Part shown: positions 15,647 to 49,962 of the stretch, piece after piece
How positions within the stretch are numbered: position 1 is the first letter of the stretch
How the letters are laid out: each line of letters begins with the position of its first letter
From: a virus
Taxonomy: Duplodnaviria > Caudoviricetes
Direction: 5' to 3' (one strand)
IMG/VR virus record: IMGVR_UViG_3300044707_000152
Span: 1 to 55,433 of that record
DNA: 55,433 nt
Notes under the pieces: model-generated
What the model was told of the DNA's origin: nothing
The model's input: the letters and a program-made list of their open reading frames with translations, nothing else
Databases searched by the model: none
Made by a program: the position numbers and the translations under genes

Positions 15647-15667
15647 TTATCGGAAACGATAATCCCT

Positions 15668-39532: not shown

Positions 39533-39735
39533 CTTAATTTTCTCAATACTTCTTTTGCGTAGTCTTCCATATGTCTCGCGGACAATCCAGAGTGTGCTAT
39601 GTATACAAGTGCAGCTATTGCTTCTTCTCGTTCACGCTCCAATTGACGTGCGTGTCTCCATATAATCGGATGAGATAATCTTGCCGCGCTTCCAAGCTGA
39701 TCTTCAATATGGTCTGTTTCTGGTGTATCGCTCAT
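39529..39735 (-). CDS. SDTPETD...ARxLERE family protein
   Basis: Likely start MSDTPETD; paralog of 42561-42815. Confidence 0.65.
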   Translation of the reverse strand: MSDTPETDHIEDQLGSAARLSHPIIWRHARQLEREREEAIAALVYIAHSGLSARHMEDYAKEVLRKLR

Positions 39736-40859
39736 GGATAGTATCTGTTCATTGCTTCGATGTCGTTTCCTTTGGCATACCACCCGTCTCCAGTGTAGAC
39801 ATCCATGACATCTGAGAAATATTTCTCATACATGGGTGCTACCCGCTCCAAAGTGAAGTTTTTTCCGAATCGGTGGCAGTCGTATGGGCAAATTCGGTCG
39901 ATGTTCTTAATCGCATCTACGTAGTCTCCCATCGTGCGGCAGCGGAATCCTGTTACACCATGTAGGTTATTCTCTGTGAAGCTACCCCAGTCAGAGGTGA
40001 TTGTTGGAGTCCCAGATAGTAGGTTCTCTACTTGGACACCCCCGAATGGTTCTACATACTGACTTGGTAGAAAGGACGCTTTGGCTTTCGACATGAGCTT
40101 CTTTCTGGTAGGAACATCGGCGTATCCTACATAGTGAACATGGTCTGGTAGCTTGTAACCTTCTTCTTTTTGGCCTGCGATTACCAGTTTAACCCCCGCT
40201 CGGTAGGTAGCTTCAATGGCAATATCTACACCTTTTCCGCTATACACCCTACCAAGATAGAGGAAGTAATCTTCTTTCTGGTCACAGAAGTCGAAGTCTT
40301 CTTTATCGAAGTAGTTTGGGATTACCACGGCATAGTTATCTTGTTGGCAATTTCCTACTGCCTGCATTCCGCAGAACGCATGGTAGATTGCGTAGGATTC
40401 AAATACCTTCCACCGCGCCCAATGTCCACCTGCATATCCAATACCCGGCTCAACTGTGATTAAGTCTGGATGCGCGTCACAAATAGGACGAACACCACTA
40501 CCCCAGAATGGGAGAATGAAGTCATTTTTCTTCTTACGCTGCCCAATTGCCTTAATCGCATTTCGGTAGAAAGTTTGGTAGGCATGGTCATTCGTATTAA
40601 ACTTGAAGAATGTCTTTCTCCAGTCATGTGATCCATAGCTCTTATTGAAGTCATCGTTGGTTAGGACAGGGACGTGTTCTGTGCAGATTAGGTCTGAATC
40701 TTCGTGTCCGTAGTGGATTACTTCATGGCCGCGCTGGGTCATCATCTTCCCGAACTTCACTACCTTTTGGGTGTAAGCGCAGGCGTTGAATTCTTTGGAA
40801 CTAACTGTATGAGGCAAGCCGAGGATATGGAATCTAAATTTATCGTTTACGATACTCAT
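39732..40859 (-). CDS. Glycosyltransferase, GT-B fold (GT4-like)
   Basis: YLGRV...KG and EPFGGVQVENLLSGTPTI signature. Confidence 0.88.
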   Translation of the reverse strand: MSIVNDKFRFHILGLPHTVSSKEFNACAYTQKVVKFGKMMTQRGHEVIHYGHEDSDLICTEHVPVLTNDDFNKSYGSHDWRKTFFKFNTNDHAYQTFYRNAIKAIGQRKKKNDFILPFWGSGVRPICDAHPDLITVEPGIGYAGGHWARWKVFESYAIYHAFCGMQAVGNCQQDNYAVVIPNYFDKEDFDFCDQKEDYFLYLGRVYSGKGVDIAIEATYRAGVKLVIAGQKEEGYKLPDHVHYVGYADVPTRKKLMSKAKASFLPSQYVEPFGGVQVENLLSGTPTITSDWGSFTENNLHGVTGFRCRTMGDYVDAIKNIDRICPYDCHRFGKNFTLERVAPMYEKYFSDVMDVYTGDGWYAKGNDIEAMNRYYP

Positions 40860-42815: not shown

Positions 42816-43006
42816 GGGAGCATTGAATCAATATCTTGTATCTGTGTCAATACTTTTGTTTCAGAAAAGTATTGGTTCATTATTTTAGTTCCTTCGTTGT
42901 GGTAGTTCTCTGCTATGCAATATCTTTCCTTGTCTTGAGCTTCCCAGATTGCGTTTGCCGCCTCCAGATACTTCAACGCTTTTCCGTATGCTTGGTCAGT
43001 TGTCAT
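42812..43006 (-). CDS. Hypothetical protein
   Basis: 64 aa; coupled to dnaB. Confidence 0.55.
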   Translation of the reverse strand: MTTDQAYGKALKYLEAANAIWEAQDKERYCIAENYHNEGTKIMNQYFSETKVLTQIQDIDSMLP

Positions 43007-44238
43007 TAGTATACCTCTTCAAGTTTTGAGATGTCACCACGCATGATGATTTCCGTTGTGTAGTTCCTTTGGCCTCGGCGGTTCTTCTTGATTGTCAGCC
43101 TACTCTTCTCTTTGATGTGTTCGATATACACTACTTGGTCAGAGTGCATTCCAATTGCCCGTGATTCGCGCAATCTTCCATCGTCGTTAAGCTGGGAAGC
43201 TGTGAGCATAATCGAGTTATTCTTGAGTGCCGCCAGTTTTAAACGCCTTGCAATCTCTGAAATCTGGCTTTCCCTACCCTCTTCACCATCAGATGAGATG
43301 ATTTGTAGGTAATCTACGACGATTACATCTGCCCGTTTTTCTCCAACGTATCGGTTGATTTGGGCCTCAATCTCGTCAATTTCGGCTACTCCATCCACGA
43401 TTTCGATGGGTAACTGGTGTAATTTCAACAATGCGGCGTTAATTTTGAGGAGTTCGTGCTGGTTTGCGTTCTTGTAATCCTCTGGTTCACGCACTGGATA
43501 CCCTGCCAAGTTACAAGCCATGCGAGTTAGGATGTCCTTCGCTTTCATTTCGAGGCTGAAGAACAGAACTGACTTTCCATCTTGCAGGTTAGCGAGTGCC
43601 GCTTGGACGAGGTAGATAGATTTTCCTCCACCTGTCTCTGAAGCCACTGTCATCATCTCTCCTTTGTGCATTCCGCCCTTCAGCGCACGATCTACTTTGA
43701 GTAGTCCAGTAGGAAAGAATTCCTTTACAGCTTTACCTTCCATCTCATCAATAATTTCGATGATGAGGTCTTTGACTGGTTTTACTTTTGTTGTCCTATC
43801 CTCGGCCAAGTTCATTATCGTTTCCGATAATCCCTTCAAATCGGCCTTGCCTGCGCGGAGGTTTACTTCTTCCTTCTCCATAAGAGTAAGAACATCGCGG
43901 TAGGCTTTAGTGCGGTGCAGGTGCTTCCGGTAGTCATCTGCCATGTCTTGGCAAACCTTACCAGAAGTTACTTTCATTGTGGTTAGGATTTCGTGAATCG
44001 CATCTTCACCACCCGCTGCTTCAAGCTGTCCAGTTGCTTCAAGCTCTGCAATGGCAGAGAACGGGCAGCAAACCCCTGTCCGCTGGTGAACCCCTTGGAG
44101 TGCATTAAAAACGATTCTGTGGGCTGGTATGGCGAAGTAATCGCTATCCCATGTTTGTTGGGAAAGGATGTTTCTATCGATTGCGATGAGCGACAACACT
44201 GCCGCTTCGCTCTTTCGTGCTATTGGGACTTTTTTCAT
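43006..44238 (-). CDS. dnaB: Replicative DNA helicase, DnaB family
   Basis: SEAAVL N-terminus, TGGGKS Walker A, FSLEM, VVDYLQ, SQLN, LRES, KNRRG. Confidence 0.9.
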   Translation of the reverse strand: MKKVPIARKSEAAVLSLIAIDRNILSQQTWDSDYFAIPAHRIVFNALQGVHQRTGVCCPFSAIAELEATGQLEAAGGEDAIHEILTTMKVTSGKVCQDMADDYRKHLHRTKAYRDVLTLMEKEEVNLRAGKADLKGLSETIMNLAEDRTTKVKPVKDLIIEIIDEMEGKAVKEFFPTGLLKVDRALKGGMHKGEMMTVASETGGGKSIYLVQAALANLQDGKSVLFFSLEMKAKDILTRMACNLAGYPVREPEDYKNANQHELLKINAALLKLHQLPIEIVDGVAEIDEIEAQINRYVGEKRADVIVVDYLQIISSDGEEGRESQISEIARRLKLAALKNNSIMLTASQLNDDGRLRESRAIGMHSDQVVYIEHIKEKSRLTIKKNRRGQRNYTTEIIMRGDISKLEEVY

Positions 44239-44244
44239 GTTAGG

Positions 44245-45171
44245 TTAAAAGTTAGAAAATCGTTCTGGTTTGGTAGTTGTTTTTGGTTTTATCCATTCAG
44301 CCTTGAAGCTCTGCCATCCACGGGTGACGCATTCGGTCAGTGCCTCCTCAATGTGCATCGCTGCCTTCTCTGCTTCTTTGGCGATAGACGCGAGGGCGGT
44401 TGCTGATAGCGGGGCGCGTTTGGCTTTACGGAGGGCGATGAAGTCATCCCAGACTTGCTCGCCTACTCCAGCAGGTTTTTCAATTTGGGTAGCTGACGAT
44501 TTTTTATTTCGTGGGGGGGCCGCGCAATGGGGGGCCGTTTCTTTGCCATCGGCGGTGGTTAGCTTAGTTTTAACTAAGCCCGAAGCGTTAGCTTCACTTG
44601 GGTTAGTCGAGAATAGATTTGGTTGATTCAATTCAACCGAGGAATGTGAGGCCACTGCCGAACTTTCCTCTTCCCCTTGAAAAGGGGTTAGGGGTTTTGT
44701 ATTCTCTGTTAGTTTCTCTGTATATTGTTTAATATGACGCGCGCGCACGGAACGAGAAGAATCTTCCACATGGTCAGGAAGAATCTTCCAGATGGATGTG
44801 GAAGAATCTTCCAGATGGTCTGCTCTTTCGGAGGTCAAAATTGTGAGTGCAGATTGGCTGATTGTGTAATACTTCATTGCCTTTCCAGCCTGCAAATCGA
44901 ACTGCTTTGACTTAACCAAACCCATACTTTCAAGCGTCCGAAATACCTCACCGATTGTCCTTGTTGACCAAAACGGAAACGAGAATTCGCGCCATTGCTC
45001 AAGGGTGTTGAATATCCAACGCTCGTCATCCACAACTTTTCCAGATCGTTTTTGACCGCACCAGAACTTCAGAGTTTGAAGCACGATTGCTTCTGGTAGC
45101 CCGATTAGTTTTGCCAAGGTTGGCTGAAAGACGATGGGCGTTTCGTCAATCAATAGATTTGATTTACTCAT
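44245..45171 (-). CDS. Replication initiator (lambda O-like)
   Basis: N-terminal winged helix (LAKLIGLPEAIVLQ...WIFNT..W), internal iterons, C-terminal WDDFIALRKAK...RGWQSFKAEW; lies upstream of dnaB. Confidence 0.8.
   Translation of the reverse strand: MSKSNLLIDETPIVFQPTLAKLIGLPEAIVLQTLKFWCGQKRSGKVVDDERWIFNTLEQWREFSFPFWSTRTIGEVFRTLESMGLVKSKQFDLQAGKAMKYYTISQSALTILTSERADHLEDSSTSIWKILPDHVEDSSRSVRARHIKQYTEKLTENTKPLTPFQGEEESSAVASHSSVELNQPNLFSTNPSEANASGLVKTKLTTADGKETAPHCAAPPRNKKSSATQIEKPAGVGEQVWDDFIALRKAKRAPLSATALASIAKEAEKAAMHIEEALTECVTRGWQSFKAEWIKPKTTTKPERFSNF
44695..44820. other. Probable replication origin (iterons plus AT-rich segment) inside the initiator gene
   Basis: GAAGAATCTTCCA[CG]ATGG at 44756, 44778 and 44801; AT-rich stretch at about 44695-44735. 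Confidence 0.75.
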
Positions 45172-45320
45172 TTAAAAAAAGGCGACCCCTTGTAGTGGCG
45201 AAGAAGTGCGGCAACAGACGCATGAAGGTGGATTACCACCACAAGGGATCATTTAGTTTTATTTGGTTAACTTAAACTTCTTCAATCCGGCCTTCACCCC
45301 GGATGTGCAATTTCTCGCAC
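45172..45320 (-). ncRNA. Structured leader of the initiator gene with C4-antisense-like architecture
   Basis: Two 5' hairpins plus a long-stem element whose unpaired parts are complementary to upstream sites; U-run before the ATG. Confidence 0.45.
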
Positions 45321-45326
45321 AAGACA

Positions 45327-45355
45327 AAACTACTATAGGTTGTGTTCGATGTCAA
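45327..45355 (-). promoter_or_regulatory. Promoter for the replication operon
   Basis: TTGACA-N17-TAGTTT on the minus strand, 10 nt from the 45366 palindrome. Confidence 0.5.
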
Positions 45356-45380
45356 GCATCTTTTTTATCGGTTACGATAA

Positions 45381-46175
45381 TTATCCATCATAGCACCCGC
45401 ATGGAATTTTGTGTGGATCATTCTCGTCAAGCCATTCAAAAAGTTTTAATTGATCGTCGTCAGCTTCAACAATATCGCTCCACGGAACGCCGAAAGATAA
45501 TCCTTTTACTCGGCCCTTCACAACCATGTTTGTTTCCATTGCGATTGCTCTCGCAAAATATTCTGGATATTCTTTTCGCAGGCGAAGAATTTCACTATTC
45601 TTCATTGCGGGGCAGAAGAAGCATGATGACTTTCCGGGTAATGGCAATCCATGTCGTTTGATTGTATCAACGCATTCACTGCGAGTCCACATCCATTCGA
45701 TAAGCGGATACCAGTTATTGGCTTTTTGAGTTTTAGAAAGCTGGGTATATTCTATACTAATCGCACGATGTCCCTCTCCAGCATCATATCCTATTGCACG
45801 AATTATTTCTGAATGATTATTATCTTTCATCCATTTCTTTATCATTTTATTCTGAGGATCAACCTTATGTTTCAATGAGCAAGCCTTAAATCCATAAGCC
45901 AGTGAAGGAAGTATTTTCTTGCGGTGGCACTCATCATACAAGTTCTCTCGTTCTCCTTTGTATGTAGCGTAAACTTTTTCAATCTCAAGACCCCACCATT
46001 CTTGAGTTTTCTTGCTCATCAAATCAATGTGAGCGTAAGTATTCGGAAGTTCACCGCCAGTATCTGCGAATACAATTAGGTCTGGTTTGATTCCTCTATC
46101 AATAAATCCGCAAAGCATGGCGACTGAGTTTGTTCCGCCTCCGTAAGCAACAACTAATGGTTTATCTATTTTCAT
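45381..46175 (-). CDS. PAPS-reductase-family (PP-loop) enzyme with a Cys cluster
   Basis: AYGGGTNS, FADTGGE, CSLKHK, YPL, KSSCFFCP, C-terminal CGC. Confidence 0.8.
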   Translation of the reverse strand: MKIDKPLVVAYGGGTNSVAMLCGFIDRGIKPDLIVFADTGGELPNTYAHIDLMSKKTQEWWGLEIEKVYATYKGERENLYDECHRKKILPSLAYGFKACSLKHKVDPQNKMIKKWMKDNNHSEIIRAIGYDAGEGHRAISIEYTQLSKTQKANNWYPLIEWMWTRSECVDTIKRHGLPLPGKSSCFFCPAMKNSEILRLRKEYPEYFARAIAMETNMVVKGRVKGLSFGVPWSDIVEADDDQLKLFEWLDENDPHKIPCGCYDG

Positions 46176-46186
46176 AATTTTATCGG

Positions 46187-46570
46187 TTACGATAACCAGT
46201 CCATTTCAACCTTCTCAACTTCACCTTTCGACCACTCATACATTTTGTCGTTGAGTAAGTCCCAGATTTGACTGGCATCTTCTTCTGTCTCGCACTGGAA
46301 GGTGGAGCGGCGTTCACCGATACCTTCTTTAGTAATGACAATATCTGACTTAATAACAGTATTACTATTTACACCTGTCGCGGCCATGATTGCGGTGTTG
46401 TTTATTCTGAGTGCCATGACAAGAATACCTTCATCACTTTCGTAGGTAGCCATGAACGGAGTCTCCAGCGCGGCGGCTAAAGATAGGTTTGTAACCATGA
46501 CAGTTTGCTTTACTCCAGCGAGTAATTTTTCTGCGTTGTCTTTGATGTTGTTAGTGTTATCCATAAGCAA
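46187..46570 (-). CDS. Hypothetical protein
   Basis: 127 aa; stop codon lies inside the 46181 palindrome. Confidence 0.65.
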   Translation of the reverse strand: MLMDNTNNIKDNAEKLLAGVKQTVMVTNLSLAAALETPFMATYESDEGILVMALRINNTAIMAATGVNSNTVIKSDIVITKEGIGERRSTFQCETEEDASQIWDLLNDKMYEWSKGEVEKVEMDWLS

Positions 46571-46587
46571 TCATAGTAACAAAAAAG

Positions 46588-46603
46588 TATTGACTTGTCA
46601 ATA
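46588..46603. promoter_or_regulatory. Adjacent divergent -35 elements / inverted repeat between divergent genes
   Basis: TATTGAC-TT-GTCAATA gives TTGACT on + and TTGACA on -. Confidence 0.55.
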
Positions 46604-46620
46604 GTCTTGGTTTATTTTTT

Positions 46621-46959
46621 ATGCAAATGAAACATCCATTAGAAACTGCTTATGAATCCTGCATGAGTGCCTACGAGCAATCACGCACGATCCGTTCTCT
46701 TGGACGAAAGACTTTCGCCAGCCAGCTTCGTGAAACAAGGAGATTGCTGAAATTGACTGTCCGTGAACTTGGAGACAAGATCGGCGTGACAGGATCACTG
46801 GTCAACCAGATTGAAGTAAACTCCAAGAGTATCCTAAAGAAAGAACAAGTCGAAAAAGTAATCGCCCTATGCTACAAAGAAAAACGCCCCTACAGGCAAA
46901 AACAGGATTCAAAAAGCGAGGGGGAAAGCTCAGAGCAGTCTCCGACTCCCGAAGAGTAA
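46621..46959 (+). CDS. XRE/Cro-family HTH regulator
   Basis: LRETRRLLKLTVRELGDKIGVTGSLVNQIE. Confidence 0.8.
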   Translation: MQMKHPLETAYESCMSAYEQSRTIRSLGRKTFASQLRETRRLLKLTVRELGDKIGVTGSLVNQIEVNSKSILKKEQVEKVIALCYKEKRPYRQKQDSKSEGESSEQSPTPEE

Positions 46960-49572: not shown

Positions 49573-49950
49573 ATGAAACTAAAAAACAAAAACCTCGCAC
49601 CAATCGGCGGCTGGTTCTTTAAATATGAGATCAAGCGCGATAAACTCACATTTCCTGCAATTGTTCATGGTAGCACATGGAATTCCTTGATAAAGAATAT
49701 CGAGAAAGACTATCGCGCAAACAACATCGAACTTCCTGCTAACATCGAAGCGATGGTCGAAGATCAAATCTGCCAGCGTCAACCAAGTGATCGTTGCTGG
49801 TATGTTGATGGTCTTGGAGACAAGATCGCTAAAGCCATCCATACAGTCGCAGCGGTAACTGACAAAGTTTTGAAAACTAAACTTGAGCAGAAAGCTAAAA
49901 TATGTCCTTCCTGCAATAAACGTAGGGTTGCGCTTAACTCATTATCGTAA
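49573..49950 (+). CDS. Hypothetical protein with CxxCxxR...LN C-terminus
   Basis: GLGDKIAKAI...CPSCNKRRVALN; stop codon lies inside the 49943 palindrome. Confidence 0.7.
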   Translation: MKLKNKNLAPIGGWFFKYEIKRDKLTFPAIVHGSTWNSLIKNIEKDYRANNIELPANIEAMVEDQICQRQPSDRCWYVDGLGDKIAKAIHTVAAVTDKVLKTKLEQKAKICPSCNKRRVALNSLS

Positions 49951-49962
49951 ACGATAAAATAT

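Follow-up and report, generated by a model that had tools for sequence, protein, structure and literature searches.

The window analysed here is a complete virus record of 55,433 bp, and all positions given below refer to this whole stretch of DNA. Its minus strand carries a replication module in which a gene for a replication initiator, O-like or DnaD-like and 308 aa long (44245-45171; phrog_678 at 7.5e-29, phrog_6493 at 2e-22), is followed by a gene for a DnaB-type replicative helicase (43006-44238; Pfam DnaB_C at 2.3e-30, phrog_19 at 5.9e-58). The initiator gene is preceded by a leader of about 150 nt (45172-45320), whose own upstream neighbour is a PAPS-reductase-like ORF on the same strand (45381-46175). 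Further upstream, an HTH protein is encoded on the plus strand (46621-46959). This is the only HTH gene found in our scans, in which 75 ORFs were compared with PHROGs and 63 with Pfam. Other genes recognised in the window are tail, nuclease, helicase, QueD-like, dCMP deaminase, ferredoxin and glycosyltransferase genes. Among the ORFs of the window scanned with PHROGs and Pfam, we detected neither an integrase nor a partition gene, so that classical prophage immunity is not evident, and ARAGORN found no tRNA or tRNA-like gene in the window. Divergent promoter-like sites are present at 46573-46618, between the HTH gene and the minus-strand operon leading to the PAPS-reductase-like gene and the leader. 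This arrangement looks like a switch region, though no integrase was found.

The leader is read on the minus strand and its elements are given here in that direction. A putative promoter, with a -35 box TTGACA (45355-45350) separated by a 17-nt spacer from a -10 box TAGTTT (45332-45327), is predicted to start transcription at about 45320, which is the first base of hairpin H1 (45320-45305; 6 bp, GAAA loop). Hairpin H2 (45304-45285; 6 bp, 8-nt loop) abuts H1 and carries in its loop the segment a1 (45297-45291). The single-stranded segment b1 (45284-45276) begins 7 nt after a1 and pairs with b' further downstream. An A/U-rich linker of 25 nt (45275-45251), with a conserved UAAAUUAAC-like core, leads to the 3' domain (45250-45184), where an outer stem P of 15 bp (45250-45236 with 45198-45184) encloses successively a' (45228-45222), the central hairpin C (45221-45208) and b' (45207-45199). 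Along the RNA, read 5' to 3', a' precedes b' just as a1 precedes b1. Stem P is directly followed by a GCC tail (45183-45181), then by a run of seven U (45180-45174), two A and the ATG of the initiator (45171-45169). An earlier note, made from this DNA by reading alone, had described the hairpins, the stem, the two pairings, the U7 run and the ATG on the minus strand, and every one of them is in place. With the exception of the U run, they are also kept in relatives.

The promoter was not called by a simple promoter scan because its -10 box matches at just 3 of 6 positions. Its -35 box is nevertheless invariant and TAGTAGTTT nearly invariant across 23 aligned copies, and the two copies with divergent promoter sequences (L002 and L009) yet retain TTGAC-17/18-TAnnnT. 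The linker likewise ends with an invariant A and U directly before stem P (columns A70 and T71 of alignment A2, described below).

Relatives were collected by several routes. A search with the initiator protein yielded 80 viral loci, in 26 of which the leader was found by blastn, and a pattern scan combining the -10 box with the H1 loop provided at least 119 further stretches. Among the 199 loci searched with nhmmer, 83 full-length leader copies were recovered; they reduce to 61 distinct sequences, which together with the window make 62 copies (61 distinct rows). Two alignments were used: A1, with 23 rows after four exact duplicates were dropped, and A2, with 62 rows, from which duplicates and the copy of locus L202 were left out. 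The covariance model R1, built here from the leader family, finds a single copy in the window (138.8 bits) and a single copy in L202 (119.7 bits). L202 is a 51.8-kb contig of a MAG labelled Woesearchaeota and harbours a full leader copy. It was the one contig obtained in a scan of genome contigs for the leader, and probably represents a phage genome that was binned into the MAG. The leader has no DNA match among GenBank phages, and tblastn with the initiator returned only distant relatives, below 46% identity.

The minimum free energy (MFE) fold of 45165-45335 reaches -52.2 kcal/mol, compared with -40.35 +/- 3.84 for shuffled sequences (z -3.09), and 1 of 200 shuffles folds as well or better. 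It contains H1, H2, P and C, with P lengthened to 16 bp. In ensembles restricted to nested structures, the four segments engaged in the long-range pairings are mostly exposed (unpaired probability 0.98 for a1, 0.74 for b1, 0.89 for a' and 0.83 for b'), and the stems have unpaired probabilities of at most 0.03, except C with 0.23.

Comparison of the 62 copies of A2 supports each of these helices. Overall, 95.0% of the pairing cells are paired versus 82.8 +/- 0.4% in shuffles, and sliding the partners by 1-3 columns lowers this to 39-51%. Both sides change in 23 of 37 pairs. None of 500 shuffles matches the observed percentage paired or the covariation score; the count of pairs changing on both sides is reached by 20 of the 500. 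Double-sided changes affect 2 of 6 pairs in H1 (99.7% of cells paired), 2 of 6 in H2 (87.5%, the unpaired cells reflecting an alignment shift in divergent clades), 12 of 15 in P (93.8%), 2 of 3 in C (97.3%) and 5 of 7 in the a1:a' pseudoknot (98.6%). RNAalifold recovers H1, P and C independently. Since MAFFT places b1 out of register, b1:b' was tested without alignment. The longest helix between a copy's own partners averages 7.7 bp and -8.1 kcal/mol over the 62 copies, compared with 5.9 bp and -4.6 kcal/mol for permuted partners, and the observed values were reached in 0 of 2000 permutations. Similarly, 0 of 2000 partner permutations attain the observed complementarity of a1:a'. The b1:b' pairing occurs as 28 helix types and a1:a' as 8, with one internal mismatch in the a helix of six copies. 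Covariation of both pairings in relatives, which the earlier note had put forward as a check, is thus borne out.

The G-U pairs, 258 of 2245 cells (11.5%) when summed from the per-pair table of A2, give the orientation of the molecule. Read from the opposite strand, they would become A-C mismatches; the RNA is therefore in the sense of the initiator gene, and the structure is that of RNA, neither of DNA nor of a counter-transcript. Neighbouring helices are separated by 0-1 nt, so that all of them can coexist in one compact crossed (pseudoknotted) fold. An alternative local hairpin, between the 5' arm and an adjacent CCAC segment, was rejected, being impossible in divergent clades. At its 5' end, this replication module carries a conserved fold of RNA in which two long-range pairings cross.

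The junction with the initiator gene is strongly constrained. The GCC after stem P and the U before it are invariant in all 62 copies, in each of which 11-15 nt separate the end of the stem from the AUG. Such a fixed spacing suggests that translation initiation, or processing at the GCC, is affected. The U7 run before the ATG, to which the earlier note had drawn attention, is present in the window and is not a constant of the family: a run of at least four U occurs in 52 of the 62 copies and is absent from 10, and the 3-nt GCC spacer always stands between it and stem P. With 10 copies lacking it, intrinsic termination would hardly be an output common to the whole family. The 3' stem of the leader was not called in the terminator scan, whose loop limit is 3-8 nt. 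In the window, an ORF of 26 codons (45172-45252, minus strand) opens with an AUG at the stem base and closes with a TAA abutting the rep ATG. The ATG of this small ORF is missing in 13 of 62 copies; among the other 49, all three frames relative to rep occur, and a nearby stop is lacking in 14. A coupled leader peptide is thus unlikely. A sigma-70-type scan detected no opposite-strand promoter within the leader. The one RNA run with a matching contig (151 nt, covering only 45310-45365) is uninformative on transcripts.

The sites of long-range pairing are those that vary most. In clade 1, the largest with 38 copies, nucleotide diversity is high for b' (0.37), a' (0.33) and a1 (0.23). It is lower for the linker core (0.12), the 5' arm of P (0.076) and the H1 loop (0.013), and hairpin C and the GCC tail are both at 0.00. 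In 59 close pairs of copies, i.e. pairs with at most 6 differing positions outside the a/b sites, differences per column are 3.0 times denser within these sites than outside. The two specificities are combined in different ways: one b type can be found with different a types, as illustrated by the b type of the window, which accompanies another a type in L202, and many b types occur with one and the same initiator N-terminus. Such variability, highest in the leader at its pairing sites, suggests an allele-specific action in trans. A frozen scaffold with turnover of its recognition segments is the pattern expected of specificity determinants, which is not proof of selection; this hypervariability could also come from weaker constraints on sequence identity instead of selection.

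The replication module that follows the leader is mosaic. Among 15 downstream proteins scanned in relatives, 5 are O-like initiators, 1 is an HNH endonuclease and 9 have a weak match or none, these nine being mostly fragments or small ORFs of about 88 aa. The gene after the leader varies between loci (L019, L023, L026, L029, L030, L032 and others), with several unrelated initiator N-termini, and in some loci the conserved C-terminal domain of the initiator comes after a small ORF (about 88 aa) or a gene for an HNH endonuclease.

A palindrome, TTATCG-N4-CGATAA, is dispersed in the window, with 20 sites at no more than 1 mismatch where 0.09 would be expected (e.g. 1675-1690, 15647-15662, 45365-45380, 46180-46195 and 49942-49957). 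Several copies stand 5-10 nt ahead of start codons and others inside ORFs. The copy at 45365-45380 is located just upstream of the -35 box of the leader, a position kept in most relatives. This palindrome may be a site for a phage regulator or a nuclease, or form an RNA hairpin, and we do not count it as part of the riboregulator.

As to the host, the glycosyltransferase gene (39732-40859, minus strand) is up to 72% identical to its counterparts in Synechococcus phages (myophages; 51 of 52 matching phage records). A cyanobacterial host is hinted at by this match and by the presence of ferredoxin, QueD-like and dCMP deaminase genes, and is plausible also in view of the scarcity of Shine-Dalgarno-like motifs, which precede just 7 of 77 crude ORFs. 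A/T-rich stretches are found ahead of start codons. The motif TAnnTTTG is characteristic of Bacteroidota-type promoters. It is not enriched in the window (52 matches versus 40.9 +/- 6.0 expected), and a promoter of this type was not retained.

From the position of the leader, from analogy with known systems and from the hypervariability of its pairing sites, we infer a role in the control of replication or immunity. The model that we favour, with a confidence that we would call even, is a riboregulator of the IsrK-C4/CI kind, whose released 3' domain would exert allele-specific negative control on the replication module. By analogy, the conserved promoter would start the transcript at hairpin 1. 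The 5' domain, comprising H1, H2 with a1 presented in its loop and the single-stranded b1, would be the 'target', and the 3' domain, a stem of 15-16 bp enclosing a', a small hairpin and b', would be the 'antisense'. The latter would probably be released as a stable RNA of about 70-80 nt, as are P1 C4 and P4 CI. Its 5' end would be produced by an RNase P cut at the junction of the invariant U and the stem, and its 3' end would lie at the GCC or the U run. The combination of a U before a stem and a GCC/ACC-type tail is linked to RNase P recognition; if the host is a cyanobacterium, its RNase P may not rely on a CCA-like tail. Once released, the RNA would bind a1/b1 on later leader transcripts or on those of a co-infecting relative with the same alleles, with the effect that less read-through or translation would reach the initiator-helicase operon. 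The outcome could be timing control, exclusion or immunity acting via the replication module. The negative sign of the regulation is our guess.

This model supposes that the target is the leader itself. A second copy of the a and b targets, equivalent to a2/b2 of P1 or seqC of P4, was found neither in the window nor in the 1.5-kb flanks of 22 relatives. Consequently, only uncleaved leaders can be targets, and these already contain their partner in cis. Within dnaB, a purine-rich stretch resembling the target (about 43865-43878) has no covarying counterpart in relatives and was discarded as a chance occurrence.

A more specific picture, which we advance tentatively as a possibility well short of an even chance, is an allele-specific RNA lock-and-key, in which an RNA derived from the leader, recognising its target by two hypervariable segments, would bind the leader of co-infecting genomes with the same alleles and gate their replication module, in apparently non-temperate cyanophage-like viruses.

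Other explanations have to be weighed against the favoured riboregulator. The most serious of them, although we hold it to be rather unlikely, is a purely cis-acting leader, in which a double pseudoknot within one transcript would fix termination, mRNA stability or translation of the initiator with no RNA acting in trans. Both partners are indeed always on the same transcript of 150 nt and no separate target was found; the junctions of 0-1 nt suit one compact fold, the constancy of the stem-AUG spacing (11-15 nt, 62/62) suggests a local effect on initiation or processing, and no lysogeny genes were found in the scans. However, pairing sites that are the most variable part of the leader, within scaffold helices and loops that are nearly frozen, are unexpected for a purely structural helix, and the invariant U and GCC flanks match those of the processed trans-acting RNAs of P1 and P4. 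The roles of the two domains could also be exchanged. In an IsrK-like scheme, a released 5' domain would bind a'/b' on the read-through leader-rep mRNA and activate translation of the initiator. The 5' domain has the layout of IsrK and seqA, the P stem is 11-15 nt from the AUG, and there is a precedent, since the short IsrK activates in trans the translation of its own read-through transcript (available sections of PMC4825925). Against this, the leader has no terminator after the 5' domain, unlike P4 and the isrK model, so that release of this domain would depend on cleavage, and nothing in the sequence signals that the pairing opens the start region; we consider this scheme improbable.

In IncB, IncI-alpha and IncL/M plasmids, rep is controlled with the help of an antisense RNA from the opposite strand, a leader peptide and a pseudoknot formed at the ribosome site of rep. 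Transposed here as in IncB or IncI-alpha, a leader peptide would be coupled to rep via a pseudoknot and opposed by a counter-transcript, an idea encouraged by the 26-codon ORF of the window, whose TAA abuts the rep ATG. It becomes very improbable in view of the family, where this ATG is lost from 13 of 62 copies and the frames vary in the other 49, 14 of which lack a nearby stop. Moreover, the sequence evolves as paired RNA and not as codons, a counter-transcript folded into the same shape is excluded by the G-U pairs, and the sigma-70-type scan reveals no opposite-strand promoter in the leader. Even less credible, to the point that we hardly entertain it, is an explanation that does without RNA, by chance hairpins plus a terminator or by a DNA feature such as origin repeats or a protein-binding site. 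The region adjoins a replication gene and a dispersed palindrome lies beside the leader, as such a feature might. This explanation is already contradicted by covariation: compensatory changes in 23 of 37 pairs, G-U in 11.5% of cells, 95% pairing that falls to 39-51% with slid partners, and 0 of 2000 permutations.

If the lock-and-key reading is true, the leader would provide RNA-based self/non-self discrimination, or exclusion, between competing phages. Its crossed double pairing would be a topology without counterpart in C4/CI, and its carriers, viruses with an auxiliary gene nearest to those of Synechococcus phages and in which no lysogeny genes were seen, would place such RNAs beyond the temperate phages of Proteobacteria from which they are known. 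At least 28 natural b1:b' specificities and 8 types of a1:a' helix on one frozen scaffold constitute a ready series of compensatory mutations for probing how specificity arises in two-site RNA recognition. The family is absent from Rfam 15, and its support is sufficient for adding it. It could also help to settle the role of the long-unexplained upstream a1/b1 sites of P1.

RNA-only immunity or control of the IsrK-C4/CI type is known from P1, P7, P4, N15 and some prophages of Proteobacteria. The earlier note had likened the leader to P1 C4 and P4 CI and suggested an Infernal search against the C4 and c4-a1b1 models. This search speaks against direct membership. The Rfam models C4, c4-a1b1 and isrK have no match at E<=10 in 3 kb of the window or in 196 nt of it taken alone, nor at E<=1 in 20 diverse relatives; C4 has no match at its gathering score in the whole window, and the Rfam search of the window gave sub-threshold chance matches only. 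By contrast, the controls were recovered with 44-75 bits, P1 by C4 (RF01695, 68.8 bits) and c4-a1b1 (RF03163, 51.0 bits), and P4 by C4 (74.9 bits), isrK (RF01394, 60.8 bits) and c4-a1b1 (44.1 bits). In the reverse direction, R1 has no match in P1. Searched with filters off against the whole P4 genome, its best match is the seqA/IsrK region, with a weak score (16.1 bits, rough E 0.038).

The likeness is found in the layout. The c4-a1b1 consensus has that of our leader: its two hairpins abut, the second presents a1 in a loop of 8 nt, and b1 follows immediately. In the P1 record, the promoter P1c4 is followed by a1 (7 nt), a gap of 7 nt, b1 (8 nt), c4 (77 nt), a2, b2 and icd, and a1/b1 are annotated there as no more than 'putative' target sites. 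The promoter, the 7-nt a1, the 7-nt gap and b1 are spaced as in the leader, and the distance from the -10 box to hairpin 1 is 6 nt in P1, P4 and the window alike. C4 and CI also share with the leader a long terminal stem enclosing two exposed antisense segments. The flanks of this stem are U and ACC in P1, U and GCCA in P4, and U and GCC in the leader family. The a1 loop of P4, CGUGAGAA, can be compared with GGUGAGAG in relatives of the leader, and is two letters apart from the commonest loop of the family.

The order of the antisense segments separates the leader from these RNAs. In P1 and P4, b' lies in a hairpin loop and comes before a', at the 3' junction, the whole being preceded by a hairpin. 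In the leader the order is opposite, with a' at the 5' junction, one small hairpin, and b' at the 3' junction. Because a' precedes b', the helices of the leader cross, whereas the pairings of P1 and P4 are colinear. The resemblance pointed out in the earlier note is thus partly borne out, and is closer than that reading could tell, in the 5' layout, the long stem exposing two antisense segments and the flanks; the absence of an Rfam match, the reversed order and the lack of a2/b2 or seqC go against it.

Each known system shares part of its logic with the leader. P1 differs by its functional a2/b2, placed downstream over the icd ribosome site, and by what it controls, an antirepressor. For its C4, cleavage by RNase P at the stem's 5' end is reported (PMC5320573 and PMC11143913, citing Hartmann 1995, from the sections accessible), and the c4 specificity segments differ between heteroimmune relatives (PMC5320573, same sections). 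P4, as portrayed in the available parts of PMC4825925 and PMC3632133, is close to the leader in having a promoter, two abutting hairpins, a single-stranded second site and a long-stem RNA at the head of a replication-gene operon. According to the same parts, its CI RNA pairs with seqA and seqC, which causes premature termination and blocks the P4 replication genes. Unlike the leader, P4 separates seqA from CI by a terminator and possesses, beyond CI, a third site, seqC; the leader, unlike P4, has the initiator AUG 11-15 nt after the stem and no seqC. The IsrK of Gifsy-1 is also a leader RNA of a1b1 shape, of which the short and read-through forms interact (PMC4825925, parts available). It departs from our leader by its own terminator, by activating translation of orf45/anrP and by having no long-stem two-site partner directly before a regulated start codon. 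With the leaders of IncB, IncI-alpha and IncL/M plasmids, the common point is a long-range pairing in the rep leader that involves a hairpin loop, whereas the other features of these plasmids, namely opposite-strand antisense RNA, leader peptide and rep-site pseudoknot, are unsupported in the leader.

In the accessible parts of the literature on C4, c4-a1b1, CI RNA, IsrK and cyanophages, the leader is not described, and the supplement of PMC2864571 may say more on a1/b1; nor do the portions available of a 2025 review of phage sRNAs (PMC12197685) describe it. The leader is not a detectable member of the C4, c4-a1b1 or isrK families. In architecture it resembles the RNA immunity switches of P1 and P4 and looks like a remodelled relative of them, in which the two-site design principle would have been rebuilt with a different topology and fused directly to the start codon of a replication initiator.
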